Assembly (NCBI GenBank): GCA_964016885.1
Contig: CAXHJY010001125.1
Location: forward strand, 208,032 to 272,031
From: Eledone cirrhosa
Taxonomy: Eukaryota
Length of the DNA: 64,000 bases
Direction of reading: 5' to 3'
Within the stretch, counting starts at the first letter, position 1. Each line of letters opens with the position of its first letter. Made by a program: the position numbers and the translations under genes. The notes beneath the pieces are model-generated. The model did no database searches and had not been told where the DNA came from. It saw only the letters and a list, made by a program, of their open reading frames with translations. Below, piece after piece: positions 2,570 through 59,927 of the stretch.

Positions 2570-5500
2570 CAACTAGATATAACTGGATATATTACTGGAT
2601 ATAACTAGATATTACTGGATATAACTAGATGTTACTGGATATAACGGGATATAATTTGATATAACTAGATATAACTACCATATAGCTAGATATAACTACT
2701 ATATAACTAGATATAACTACCATATCACTAGATATAACTACCATATAACTAGATATAACTACTATATAACTAGATATAACTACCATATCACTAGATATAA
2801 CTACTATATAACTAGATATAACTACCATATAACTAGATATAACTACCATATAACTAGATATAACTACCATATCACTAGATATAACTACTATATAGCTAGA
2901 TATAACTACCATATAACTAGATATAACTACCATATAACTAGATATAACTACCATATCACTAGATATAACTACTATATAGCTAGATATAACTACCATATAA
3001 CTAGATATAACTACCATATAGCTAGATATAACTACCATATAGCTAGATATAACTACTATATAGCTAGATATAACTACCATATCACTAGATATAACTACCA
3101 TATAGCTAGATATAACTACCATATAGCTAGATATAACTACCATATAGCTAGATATAACTACCATATAGCTAGATATAACTACCATATAGCTAGATATAAC
3201 TACCATATCACTAGATATAACTACTATATAGCTAGATATAACTACCATATCACTAGATATAACTACTATATAACTAGATATAACTACCATATCACTAGAT
3301 ATAACTACCATATCACTAGATATAACTACTATATAACTAGATATAACTACCATATCACTAGATATAACTACTATATAACTAGATATAACTACCATATCAC
3401 TAGATATAACTACTATATAACTAGATATAACTACCATATCACTAGATATAACTACCATATAACTAGATATAACTACCATATCACTAGATATAACTACTAT
3501 ATAACTAGATATAACTACCATATAACTAGATATAACTACCATATAACTAGATATAACTACCATATAGCTAGATATAACTAGATATAACTACCATATAACT
3601 AGATATAACTACTATATAACTAGATATAACTACCATATAACTAGATATAACTACCATATCACTAGATATAACTACTATATAACTAGATATAACTACCATA
3701 TAGCTAGATATAACTACTATATAACTAGATATAACTACCATATAACTAGATATAACTACCATATCACTAGATATAACTACCATATCACTAGATATAACTA
3801 CTATATAACTAGATATAACTACCATATAGCTAGATATAACTACTATATAACTAGATATAACTACCATATAACTAGATATAACTACCATATCACTAGATAT
3901 AACTACCATATCACTAGATATAACTACCATATAACTAGATATAACTACTATATAACTAGATATAACTACTATATAACTAGATATAACTACCATATAAGTA
4001 GATATAACTACCATATCACTAGATATAACTACCATATCACTAGATATAACTACTATATAACTAGATATAACTACCATATAGCTAGATATAACTACTATAT
4101 AACTAGATATAACTACCATATAACTAGATATAACTACCATATAACTAGATATAACTACCATATCACTAGATATAACTACCATATAGCTAGATATAACTAC
4201 CATATAACTAGATATAACTAGATATAACTACCATATCACTAGATATAACTACTATATAACTAGATATAACTACCATATCACTAGATATAACTACCATATA
4301 GCTAGATATAACTACCATATAACTAGATATAACTAGATATAACTACCATATAACTAGATATAACTACCATATAACTAGATATAACTACCATATCACTAGA
4401 TATAACTACCATATAGCTAGATATAACTACCATATCACTAGATATAACTACTATATAACTAGATATAACTACCATATCACTAGATATAACTAGATATAAC
4501 TAGATATAACTACCATATCACTAGATATAACTAGATATAACTAGATATAACTACCATATAGCTAGATATAACTAGATATAACTAGATATAACTACCATAT
4601 CACTAGATATAACTACTATATAACTAGATATAACTACCATATCACTAGATATAACTACCATATCACTAGATATAACTAGATATAACTAGATATAACTACC
4701 ATATCACTAGATATAACTACTATATAACTAGATATAACTACCATATCACTAGATATAACTACCATATCACTAGATATAACTACCATATAACTAGATATAA
4801 CTACTATATAACTAGATATAACTACTATATAACTAGATATAACTACCATATAACTAGATATAACTACCATATAACTAGATATAACTACCATATAACTAGA
4901 TATTACTACCATATCACTAGATATAACTACCATATAACTAGATATAACTACTATATAACTAGATATAACTACCATATCACTAGATATAACTAGATATAAC
5001 TAGATATAACTACCATATCACTAGATATAACTAGATATAACTACCATATAGCTAGATATAACTACCATATCACTAGATATAACTACCATATAACTAGATA
5101 TAACTACCATATCACTAGATATAACTAGATATAACTACTATATAACTAGATATAACTACCATATCACTAGATATAACTACCATATCACTAGATATAACTA
5201 CCATATAACTAGATATAACTACTATATAACTAGATATAACTACTATATAACTAGATATAACTACCATATAACTAGATATAACTACTATATAACTAGATAT
5301 AACTACTATATAACTAGATATAACTACTATATAACTAGATATAACTACCATATCACTAGATATAACTACCATATAGCTAGATATAACTACCATATCACTA
5401 GATATAACTACCATATAGCTAGATATAACTACCATATCACTAGATATAACTACTATATAACTAGATATAACTACCATATAACTAGATATAACTACTATAT

Positions 5501-7436
5501 AACTAGATATAACTACTATATAACTAGATATAACTACTATATAACTAGATATAACTACCATATCACTAGATATAACTACCATATAGCTAGATATAACTAC
5601 CATATCACTAGATATAACTACCATATAACTAGATATAACTACCATATAGCTAGATATAACTACCATATCACTAGATATAACTACCATATAGCTAGATATA
5701 ACTACCATATAACTAGATATAACTACCATATCACTAGATATAACTACCATATAACTAGATATAACTACCATATCACTAGATATAACTACCATATAGCTAG
5801 ATATAACTACCATATAACTAGATATAACTACCATATCACTAGATATAACTACCATATAGCTAGATATAACTACCATATAACTAGATATAACTACCATATC
5901 ACTAGATATAACTACCATATCACTAGATATAACTACCATATAGCTAGATATAACTACCATATAGCTAGATATAACTACCATATCACTAGATATAACTACC
6001 ATATAGCTAGATATAACTACCATATCACTAGATATAACTACTATATAACTAGATATAACTACCATATAACTAGATATAACTACTATATAACTAGATATAA
6101 CTACTATATAACTAGATATAACTACCATATAGCTAGATATAACTACCATATAGCTAGATATAACTACCATATAGCTAGATATAACTACTATATAACTAGA
6201 TATAACTACCATATAGCTAGATATAACTACCATATAACTAGATATAACTACCATATCACTAGATATAACTACCATATCACTAGATATAACTACCATATCA
6301 CTAGATATAACTACCATATAGCTAGATATAACTACCATATAGCTAGATATAACTACCATATCACTAGATATAACTACCATATAGCTAGATATAACTACCA
6401 TATAGCTAGATATAACTACCATATCACTAGATATAACTACTATATAGCTAGATATAACTACTATATAGCTAGATATAACTACCATATCACTAGATATAAC
6501 TACCATATAACTAGATATAACTACCATATCACTAGATATAACTACCATATAGCTAGATATAACTACCATATAGCTAGATATAACTACCATATCACTAGAT
6601 ATAACTACCATATCACTAGATATAACTAGATATAACAACCATATAACTAGATATAACTGAATATAACTAGATATAACTACTATATAACTAGATATAACTA
6701 CCATATCACTAGATATAACTACTATATAACTAGATATAACTACCATATAGCTAGATATAACTACCATATAGCTAGATATAACTACCATATCACTAGATAT
6801 AACTACCATATCACTAGATATAACTACCATTTCACTAGATATAACTACCATATCACTAGATATAACTACCATATCACTAGATATAACTACCATATAGCTA
6901 GATATAACTACCATATAGCTAGATATAACTACCATATAGCTAGATATAACTACCATATAGCTAGATATAACTACTATATAACTAGATATAACTACCATAT
7001 AGCTAGATATAACTACCATATAACTAGATATAACTACCATATCACTAGATATAACTACCATATCACTAGATATAACTACCATATCACTAGATATAACTAC
7101 CATATAGCTAGATATAACTACCATATAGCTAGATATAACTACCATATCACTAGATATAACTACCATATAGCTAGATATAACTACCATATAGCTAGATATA
7201 ACTACCATATCACTAGATATAACTACTATATAGCTAGATATAACTACTATATAGCTAGATATAACTACCATATCACTAGATATAACTACCATATAACTAG
7301 ATATAACTACCATATCACTAGATATAACTACCATATAGCTAGATATAACTACCATATCACTAGATATAACTACCATATCACTAGATATAACTAGATATAA
7401 CAACCATATAACTAGATATAACTGAATATAACTAGC
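2570..7436. repeat. 21-bp satellite (actagatataactaccatata and variants)
   Basis: Over 200 tandem units. Source of the MVVISSY ORFs. Confidence 0.98.
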
Positions 7437-7529
7437 ATAAATCAGTTATTTCCCTTTATGCCCCATCAATTTGGTCCTCCATCCTCCATCGAGATCAATA
7501 AAATTATGTAACCAAGTAAAAACTCTTTG

Positions 7530-14499: not shown

Positions 14500-14631
14500 G
14501 GAAAGTTATATTTAAATTGTTGGGTTAACAACGAGTAAATATTTATAACTGATATAAAAGCACTCAACAAGTATTTGGAGTATATTTATGATATTAAATA
14601 AATGGAAACTATATTTATAAAACCATATTTA

Positions 14632-14693
14632 TTTCGTTATATATATTTCAGGGATATCATATTAACAATATGTTATGCCATCTTCAGACAAAA
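14632..14693 (-). ncRNA. Minimal type I hammerhead ribozyme motif (left arm of palindrome)
   Basis: Near-exact reverse complement of the 14813-14874 motif. Confidence 0.72.
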
Positions 14694-14812
14694 TACAATA
14701 TAAACAGTCTTATAAATAAATAGATACGACATACCTTTCAATCACCTTGCATTTGGGAGGTTGATTGAAAGGTATGTTGTATCTATTTATTTATAAGACT
14801 GTTTATATTGTA

Positions 14813-14874
14813 TTTTGTCTGAAGATGGCATAACATATTTTTAATATGATATCCCTGAAATATATATAACGAAA
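14813..14874 (+). ncRNA. Minimal type I hammerhead ribozyme motif (right arm of palindrome)
   Basis: TTTTGT-CTGAAGA-[TGGCATAACATATT ttt AATATGATATCCCT]-GAA-ATATATAT-A-ACGAAA. Confidence 0.72.
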
Positions 14875-14916
14875 TAAATATGGTTTTATAAATATAGTTT
14901 CCATTTATTTAATATC

Positions 14917-14950
<34 letters not shown>

Positions 14951-15254: not shown

Positions 15255-15620
15255 CACACACACACATACTTACGCACGTACACAAGTATAACTCTTTTTA
15301 CAAAACGGCTTTTTTTCCATTTCAAGTCGACGCGCTCCATCATCCACTTTTCTAAAAAAACAAATCATACACAAAACGCCAGCACCAACAGTTTTGCAAA
15401 AGATGTCAACATGAATGGACCCGTTATTTTTATCTAAAGACATTTTTTCCAATTCCATCCCGCCCGTCCCCTCAATCTATCTTATTTCTCATTCTTTCTT
15501 CTGATGAAGGACTAGCGTCCGAAACGTTAAGACCCTCTTCCTGCTATATCAAGTGTTAACCTAATATATCCCTTCCATATACTGTACTGATTGTGTTGTT
15601 ATTTCTGTTTACCTTTTACA
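15255..15620 (+). mobile_element. Hammerhead-bearing Penelope-like/retrozyme-like element
   Basis: Hammerhead at 15497, followed by a 3' segment also found inverted at 2297-2365. Ends in (TACA)/(TA)n. Confidence 0.6.
15497..15532 (+). ncRNA. Minimal type I hammerhead ribozyme motif
   Basis: TCTT-CTGATGA-A-[GGAC tagc GTCC]-GAAACGTT-AAGA. Confidence 0.82.
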
Positions 15621-16237: not shown

Positions 16238-16658
16238 CAGATATTGATATAGCAGGTATGAATACAGACAATGTCTTCCAGAGATTAGAGAGAATTGCGT
16301 TCAGTACTGGACTGGTCCTTTTTTTTTTTATCAACCTTGAAAAAAATGAAAGGCAAAGTTGACCTCAGTGGGATTTGACCTCAGATCATAGAGAGCTAAA
16401 ACAAATACTGCAAAGCTTTTTATCCAATCTTCTAATGTATCCAATCTTCTAATGTATCATTAGAAGATTGGATAAAAAGCTTTGCAGTATTTGTTTTAGC
16501 TCTCTATGATCTGAGGTCAAATCCCACTGAGGTCAACTTTGCCTTTCATTTTTTTCAAGGTTGATAAAAAAAAAAAAGGACCAGTCCAGTACTGAACGCA
16601 ATTCTCTCTAATCTCTGGAAGACATTGTCTGCATTCATACCTGCTATATCAATATCTG
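16238..16658. repeat. Near-perfect fold-back inverted duplication containing a SINE fragment
   Basis: About 200-bp arms, almost identical, with a 17-bp direct duplication at the centre. Confidence 0.9.
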
Positions 16659-36922: not shown

Positions 36923-36964
<42 letters not shown>

Positions 36965-37011
36965 AATAACAGGAGGCTGGACTGGTGTAATTCCTTAAAG
37001 GTTTATTATAC

Positions 37012-37066
37012 TATGAACATTTCAATGACTGAGTTCAGTATGAATCCGGTGACATCATCAGGTATT
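37012..37066 (-). ncRNA. Degenerate hammerhead-like motif
   Basis: Minus strand CTGATGA-tgtcaccggattcatactgaactcagtcatt-GAAA-tgttc. Stems are imperfect. Confidence 0.5.
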
Positions 37067-37581
37067 CGAAATTTAACCAAGGAATATAATCCATGGGGCT
37101 GAAAAGGCAGAGAGACGAGAAGGCAGCCACACATTTATCAGTTTCTAGTTCGGTCGGCTGAATGTATGTACATACACACACTGGCACGCAATTTGTCACT
37201 ACAGTGTCACTAGGGTGTCGGTGAGGTACCTTCCTATTTGAACCAGCTCTCTACACACTATGTTCAAATCCCACCAAGGACAACTTTGTCTTTCATCCAT
37301 TTAAGATCCATAAATAATGTACCAGTCCAGGGGTGATGGATTGGTAGATTTGTAAAAGGATCAGACAGGTTACTTTGCAGTATCTGATCCAGTTCTGTAT
37401 GTCTTGAGTTCAAATCCCACCTCCAGGAGTGGCAGATAATGTTAGAAATGATATCAATGAAAACACTTGGTCCAATCTTACAATTGGCTCTTATTCTGAA
37501 TTATGACTACTTAAAGACATGAAATATAATTTGAGAAAAACTAAAATAAGATATTGAGGTACTTTGTTACAATATACTTAC

Positions 37582-59300: not shown

Positions 59301-59511
59301 TACTACATGCAGCATATATATATATATGCAGTTGCTGCACTACCATGCAGCATATATATATATATAAGTAAGTATGTTTTGAACAGTGAGCAGGTTTGAA
59401 ATTAGAAAATATATAGCTTTCACCGTATTTTTGACTAAAGGAATTTTAGCCTGATAATGGGGTTTAGAACCCTCAGATAAATGGAAAAAGATGAGTATTG
59501 ACGTATATATA

Positions 59512-59756
59512 TATTATAAAACAACAGGAGGCTGGACTGGTGCAAATCCCCAAAAGGCCTGTTACACTATGATCACCCCAATGACCGGGCTCAGCATGAT
59601 TCCGGGTGACACCATCAGGCACCCGAAACACAACAAAGGAATACAACAGACAAAATCTGTTGTGTTTCGGGTGCCTGATGGTGTCATTGGGGTGATCATA
59701 GTGTAACAGGCCTTTTGGGTATTTGCACCAGTCCAGCCTCCTGTTGTTTTATAATA
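59512..59756. mobile_element. Palindromic element, hypermutated paralogue of 36957-37090
   Basis: Inverted arms homologous to 36957-37090, with about 20 T-to-C differences on the plus strand. Confidence 0.75.
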
Positions 59757-59892
59757 ATTAACTCCGTACTCGCACCACCAACTACACAAACGAAGACGGG
59801 TGAGTTGCATTACATTGAGTACTCTCCATAATATTACATCGAGATTGACCATACGGAATGACCAGTTCTATCCAGTGGTGAACCAAATAACC

Positions 59893-59927
<35 letters not shown>

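Follow-up and report, generated by a model that had tools for sequence, protein, structure and literature searches.

The window, a 64,000-nucleotide stretch of genomic DNA from Eledone cirrhosa, contains a retroelement copy at 59512-59897 in which about half of the adenosines on the ribozyme-bearing strand have become G; the likely cause is deamination of the RNA template by ADAR, ahead of reverse transcription. We assign a probability of roughly 0.85 to this reading. Judged from its letters, the insertion is a short fold-back copy, truncated at its 5' end, of a Penelope-like element that is non-coding and carries a hammerhead. Nine other copies were found with the same scar, and edited RNA therefore likely enters inherited DNA now and then. 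The original prediction that an edited RNA had been retrotransposed stood up on three points: the family carries A at the changed positions, the G-rich copies do not form a subfamily, and short-read contigs support the edited alleles.

The edited copy and its element family

The insertion lies between a (TA)n target on the left (59503-59511) and an (AT)n target on the right (59896-59925), flanks around which a target duplication is not definable. The inverted left arm (59512-59657), which is the 3' part of the element's terminal repeat, reads in RNA sense on the minus strand and carries 20-21 A>G changes. By alignment, the sense right arm (59658-59756, plus strand) carries the same edits, and within the 65-column overlap of the arms all 10 edits are common to both. 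The right arm lacks 25 nt of hammerhead helix II between two GTCA repeats; alternatively, it can be read as starting at 59656 with an additional 13-nt deletion. A tail of approximately 140 nt follows on the plus strand (59757-59897), unedited at all of its 51 A's and 98-99% identical to its nearest relatives. The extent initially given, 59512-59756, was thus correct for the edited arms but not for the end of the insertion, as the tail continues to 59897.

The left arm contains a minimal type I hammerhead motif with a palindromic helix III (59564-59622, minus strand), recognized by sequence inspection. A9, A13, A14 and A15.1 of the core have become G (59612 and 59576-59578), in hammerhead numbering, while the cleavage-site A at 59568 is unchanged. 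With these core A's reading G, editing would have broken the ribozyme core, as had been suggested.

The changes had been noticed against a paralogue at 37 kb, from which about 20 T>C, no C>T and about 7 other differences were reported. An alignment of 59505-59660 with 36950-37110 (142 columns) gave 19, 0 and 8 on the plus strand, plus two single-base gaps, and both minus-strand core readings, CTGATGG...GGGG at 59.5 kb and CTGATGA...GAAA at 37 kb, were confirmed. That A is the ancestral state is borne out by the family, with CTGATGA kept in 98 of the 100 listed matches (980 in all) to a 35-letter pattern. The paralogue itself (36957-37158, minus strand) is an unedited single arm with an intact hammerhead core and no private A>G. 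The 39 next-best scored loci share 97-98% identity with it, whereas no other match to the 59.5-kb copy exceeds 89%. The 37-kb copy is a member of a younger subfamily and not the parent of the edited copy, and the changes were therefore recounted against near relatives. Compared with the 29 loci whose tails are most similar, the ribozyme strand of the 59.5-kb copy shows A>G at 21/39 A's and other changes at 4/99 sites; against the 8 nearest loci, A>G amounts to 20/38, with a background of 39/4,634. CpG decay and a family with ancestral G were ruled out by the A found in the family matches and in the relatives nearest by tail. As a side observation, the youngest subfamily, to which 36957-37158 belongs, has lost the helix III palindrome (TGTTCA for TGATCA) and has amplified nonetheless, which hints that cleavage is unnecessary.

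DNA support for the edited alleles came from run X1, a set of short-read contigs whose kind of run is not on record and which possibly derives from the assembly's own sample. Its contigs match 59513-59585 and 59556-59712 with no other letters, spanning the centre of the palindrome, apart from one G at 59604 that is missing from the contig and is likely an assembly error or an allele. At 95%, runs X4, X5 and X6 yielded nothing over the edited core, which has no bearing on its presence in other individuals or species.

Genome-wide, at least 4,937 arms of the family match one 23-letter pattern. Copies are 5'-truncated, occupy (TA)n runs and terminate at either of two sites approximately 140-150 nt apart; 89 of 218 loci have arms on both strands, and in 81 of 100 head-to-head arm pairs the duplex stops at the edge between core and tail. 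All core letters of the hammerhead and the palindromic helix III are present in 96 of the 108 scorable unselected loci. Rfam returned no hammerhead match at gathering score or at E up to 1, and the motif therefore rests on inspection of the sequence. Long copies (L263, L284 and L286) consist of a repeat, approximately 2.05 kb and a second repeat, i.e., a partial tandem with pseudo-LTRs. A long reading frame was absent from the three sense frames of L263 and from 30 long copies in a six-frame scan, and an autonomous coding partner was not seen among these 30. Neither a reverse transcriptase (RT) nor a GIY-YIG frame lies within the family unit; fragments of both occur in the flanks only and are parts of other elements. 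Such fragments, identified with Pfam, and other Penelope-like frames were noted at L290:149-631, at L268:2686-3231 and in the flanks of L035, L060 and L279. Separately, L263, L284, L286 and L291 contain an internally duplicated segment of about 300 nt at approximately 1240-1800 of the 2.05-kb unit, GC-richer than its surroundings.

Tandem units of retrozymes measure a few hundred bases. The recently described non-LTR retrozymes (bioRxiv 10.64898/2026.07.22.740005) resemble our family as non-coding, hammerhead-bearing, pseudo-LTR-related and non-autonomous Penelope derivatives; however, they form small tandem arrays, and the present family has a dispersed unit of 2.05 kb, which exceeds retrozyme size. 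A search of that preprint for ADAR and for octopus gave no hit. By its hallmarks, the family behaves like a non-autonomous Penelope element. Pseudo-LTRs, 5' truncation, an inverted 5' arm, an optional tail and a minimal type I hammerhead with palindromic helix III are all on record for Penelope-like elements (PMC8557442, PMC4209133), and partial tandems and microsatellite targets are shared as well (PMC8557442, PMC4209133, PMC11167929). The published tail is 30-40 nt long, compared with about 140 nt here, where the 2.05-kb unit also lacks an RT/GIY-YIG frame. Editing scars are not described in the consulted sections of these three papers.

Recurrence and signature of the changes

Searches that were enriched for A>G supplied 319 loci in total, of which 27 were discarded as duplicates; alignable arms were available for 288. 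Among these 288, ten insertions (the 59.5-kb copy and nine more) carry 7-20 private A>G changes each, counted against nearest relatives because subfamily letters inflate the edits of some loci when the overall majority is used. None of the 288 has more than 4 T>C, more than 3 G>A or more than 4 C>T. A pattern placed at a sense hot spot matched 33 arms, 7 of which belong to 5 hyperedited insertions. The mirror pattern over the same span matched 24 arms in 23 loci, with five or more T>C in 0/23, although this single mirror search is an imperfect control, as only the sense pattern sat on a known hot spot. A third hot-spot search recaptured four edited insertions and added none. Corrected for the site being edited in about three-quarters of cases, 7/4,937 corresponds to approximately 0.2% edited arms, or about 1 in 500.

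The ten insertions do not form one clade. Forcing their monophyly costs a delta logL of 215 (AU p=2.5e-82, from fewer replicates than recommended by the program) in a tree with purine transitions masked that comprised the ten, 60 random full-length loci and nearest neighbours. The set of edits differs from copy to copy; one edited insertion appears on each of two haplotype-like contigs, in the same flanking sequence and with every edit in common, and for seven of the ten either the insertion itself or an allele of it is located on a chromosome-scale contig. From the sequences compared, the scarring events are recurrent and rare and not one lineage. That the G-rich copies represent an old or distinct subfamily, or an artefact of assembly, is hardly credible against these data. 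The family does include several subfamilies, the window is situated on a small unplaced contig of a 3.0-Gb genome, and base 59604 differs from the short-read contig. However, a tail 98-99% identical to that of unedited relatives and the rejected monophyly contradict a subfamily, and the matching X1 contigs, the chromosome-scale placements and the insertion found on two contigs contradict an artefact. Regarding length, 0/10 edited copies extend beyond 240 nt, compared with 17% of 124 others (p=0.06), so that a particular shortness of edited copies is not established.

With regards to the classes of change, the ten insertions together show A>G at 139/430 sites, T>C at 4/562, G>A at 5/211 and C>T at 12/325. 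A>C and A>T combined stay at background (1.2% compared with 0.8%). All A>G clusters lie on the hammerhead strand, the RNA strand being assigned from the hammerhead motif alone. APOBEC-type G>A on the sense strand is confined to the 5/211 sites. Within the edited spans, A's are changed in 70/119 cases after U, in 42/85 after A, in 15/74 after C and in 12/82 after G (59%, 49%, 20% and 15%), and when each site is counted once the fractions are 0.49 after U/A and 0.16 after C/G (p=2e-5). For the 59.5-kb copy alone, 16/21 A's are edited after U/A and 4/16 after C/G (p=0.003). The ADAR order for the 5' neighbour is U>A>C>G (PMC3113232). The neighbour bias that had been read by eye from one copy, and the strand-specific clustering expected of further copies, were thereby both recovered across the ten insertions. 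On the 3' side, the counts of edited A's are 15/24 before G, 34/67 before C, 31/86 before A and 59/183 before U. This trend (G>C>A>U), which is not significant by site (p=0.36), resembles human ADARs and not the preference for a downstream A that one report gives for invertebrate ADARs (PMC5625713).

Pervasive low-level editing of the family was also considered and rejected, since background A>G (39/4,634) and T>C (61/6,291) are alike in 121 loci (p=0.54). In this set, 39 loci were picked from the first listed pattern matches, minus three with visible A>G and three that had already been included, and it leans slightly against A>G. Runs X5, X16 and X4, aligned to an unedited copy, showed no asymmetry of the spectrum among the rows listed (in X16, A>G at 21, T>C at 24, G>A at 24 and C>T at 25 places) at a threshold of 3%, below which edited copies at 0.2% would fall; X11 gave no alignments.

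Duplex geometry and copying of the arms

The four two-armed edited loci have 48 A>G changes in both arms and 2 in one arm, whereas 70 unedited arm pairs have 38 private changes in both arms and 355 in one. The edits are therefore older than the formation of the arms and come from one edited source molecule, in line with the earlier view that they predate the fold-back. Gene conversion between arms was ruled out as an explanation, as the unedited pairs are not homogenised.

Editing stops where the inverted arms of the family end. In five tail-bearing edited copies, 0/251 A's of the tail are changed (1/253 in another count), compared with 76/214 in the core, and this although 29 of 50 tail A's have a favoured 5' neighbour. 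A predicted hairpin of the read-through RNA of an unedited relative (L239) pairs 93% of the core A's and 27% of the tail A's, and the monomer fold of the element does not predict the edited sites (rho -0.20, p=0.22). An exception is L166, in which editing nearly ceases about 60 nt before the usual duplex edge. By the hairpin prediction, editing would be limited to double-stranded RNA.

These data weigh heavily against a pathway that involves no editing enzyme. Polymerase eta favours a 5' A or T. Misincorporation opposite A by the RT or by a repair polymerase, caused by pool imbalance or by polymerase-eta-like WA mutagenesis, would yield sense-strand A>G, and background A>G likewise leans to 5' U/A, albeit more weakly (odds 2.6 compared with 6.2 for edited copies). 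However, the tail from the same copying event is clean (0/251), A>C and A>T are not raised when up to 53% of the A's are changed, and two separate copying passes would not repeat the same errors (48 shared, 2 not). We regard misincorporation as very improbable. A DNA-level deaminase with single-stranded or hybrid DNA as its substrate, at the time of insertion or later, has scarcely any probability either, even though ADARs can also act on the DNA strand when it is paired with RNA in a hybrid (cited in PMC12925331). Deamination of the cDNA would give sense-strand T>C, of which none was seen, while deamination after insertion is at odds with shared edits that lie on opposite genomic strands in arms that are not homogenised, and with the 6/10 edited loci that are single-armed.

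For ADAR editing of the RNA template, the probable source of the duplex is a hairpin formed by the read-through RNA of a palindromic copy. The arrangement proposed for such a source is observed in many family members, which are inverted repeats with a duplex that reaches the 3' edge of the terminal repeat but does not include the tail. Germline read-through transcription of such a locus would produce a long hairpin, of which ADAR would hyperedit the duplex and spare the tail, as the signature suggests. A Penelope RT/endonuclease acting in trans would then nick a (TA)n target and read inosine as G. Both arms would be copied from one RNA molecule, probably by priming off both target strands at two start sites that bracket the tail. 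A single cDNA that folds back is an alternative and would give the same structure; the edits shared by the arms are observed, and their manner of copying we infer. Each arm reads as a cDNA begun from one target strand, at the two 3' ends of the family. The one Penelope enzyme studied in vitro cuts and extends both target strands, with two start sites bracketing the tail (PMC11167929), which fits twin priming. The 25-nt deletion in one arm suggests two passes, provided that it arose during copying. The outcome would be dead-end copies with a broken ribozyme core, rare but recurrent. A copy that extends into the hairpin's other arm, recognizable by sense-strand T>C, was not found among the loci searched; as such a copy would show T>C, the other arm of the source hairpin appears not to have been copied.

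Alternatively, ADAR may have acted on an intermolecular duplex of sense and antisense RNA from dispersed copies, with the tail spared because RT protein covered it or because copying started only on unedited tails. We consider this unlikely. In its favour, the Penelope protein depends on the initial 172 nt of the ORF region, within which a stem loop serves as its starting point (PMC11167929); furthermore, L166 misfits the usual duplex edge, and the antisense-edited arm that a hairpin could leave was not found. However, a filter by the RT demands near-total intolerance over 140 nt (0/251), and in 4/10 edited copies, tailed or tailless, editing stops at columns 213-218, adjoining the edge at which 81 of the 100 arm pairs end.

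Precedents and effect on the family

ADAR-type A>G changes have been reported in retroviruses (PMC12925331, PMC8025556), where the passages concerned likewise describe rare, clustered A>G in integrated reverse-transcribed copies, with nearly 50% of the A's changed in an inverted-repeat region, as here. Those viruses are exogenous and were studied in culture or somatic cells, whereas the present element is non-viral and target-primed, and its scars recur in an assembled animal genome. The APOBEC 'DNA editing' of genomic LTR retrotransposons (PMC4866542, PMC2873906) is alike in that a deaminase leaves strand-specific clustered transitions in inherited copies, and those scars, too, were found via subfamily comparison. 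It differs in giving sense-strand G>A via editing of the cDNA, in vertebrates only, as opposed to A>G on the RNA of a Penelope-like element. As described there, that screen covered LTR elements only, was filtered for G>A and reported invertebrates to be devoid of such editing. ADAR1 and ADAR2 also meet retroelement RNA in the restriction of LINE-1 (PMC5224506, PMC8677026, PMC12925331), which, from the portions consulted, appears editing-independent and scarless, while a scar is present here with no sign of restriction. In the full-text literature searched, whose coverage leaves out most subscription journals and supplements, no description of ADAR scars in inherited retrotransposon copies was found; the precedents located are the retroviral ADAR and the APOBEC cases only.

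The proposed route points to A-to-I RNA editing becoming an inherited DNA change in an animal, and published screens of retroelements, being directed at G>A, would have discarded such A>G scars. The scars would record germline ADAR activity and barcode single RNA molecules, with a barcode that is common to both arms of a Penelope fold-back and ends at the tail boundary. With such barcodes, the question of how Penelope elements build their inverted repeats and tails can be tested on nothing more than genome sequence.

The original prediction had further offered an ADAR restriction or diversification route, which is unsupported because edited arms make up only about 0.2%, the spectrum across the family is symmetric, amplified descendants of edited copies were not seen among the matches and loci compared, and the single Penelope element tested in vitro could insert without cleavage by its ribozyme (PMC11167929). 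The hammerhead core is changed in 10/10 edited copies and in 12/108 scorable unselected loci, a difference that is partly due to the search design. Overall, the effect of editing on the evolution of the family looks small.

Several copies that are otherwise unedited (e.g., L068, L072, L075, L077, L103 and L120) have a G at the cleavage base of the hammerhead, in a UAG context. This G stands in both arms of 15/27 adjacent pairs, compared with 3/15 at three control sites (p=0.049, post hoc), or in 17/31 compared with 4/21 with looser pairing. It occurs in many subfamily backgrounds, with about four loci possibly alike by descent. Site-selective editing and selection for uncleavable templates are both possible explanations; an RNA edited at this single site may no longer cleave itself and may be preferred as a template for that reason. 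A broader scheme, in which Penelope-like elements make their own ADAR substrates, fold-back hairpins are edited in the germline and written into inherited DNA with twin-primed arms, and cleavage-base editing may favour templates, is put forward only as a tentative and, taken as a whole, rather doubtful proposal.

The remainder of the window contains two further long palindromes, at 14581-14925 (164-nt arms, 98%, in a (TA)n run) and 16319-16576 (119-nt arms, 100%), which are probably fold-back insertions of other families; a motif scan found no matching hammerhead in either. On the plus strand, 15497-15532 contains another minimal hammerhead-like motif, which belongs to an unrelated family. Finally, a 4.9-kb minisatellite with a 21-nt unit occupies 2571-7439, and about 30 other arrays, many of them tandem repeats of 25-121 nt, fill much of the window.
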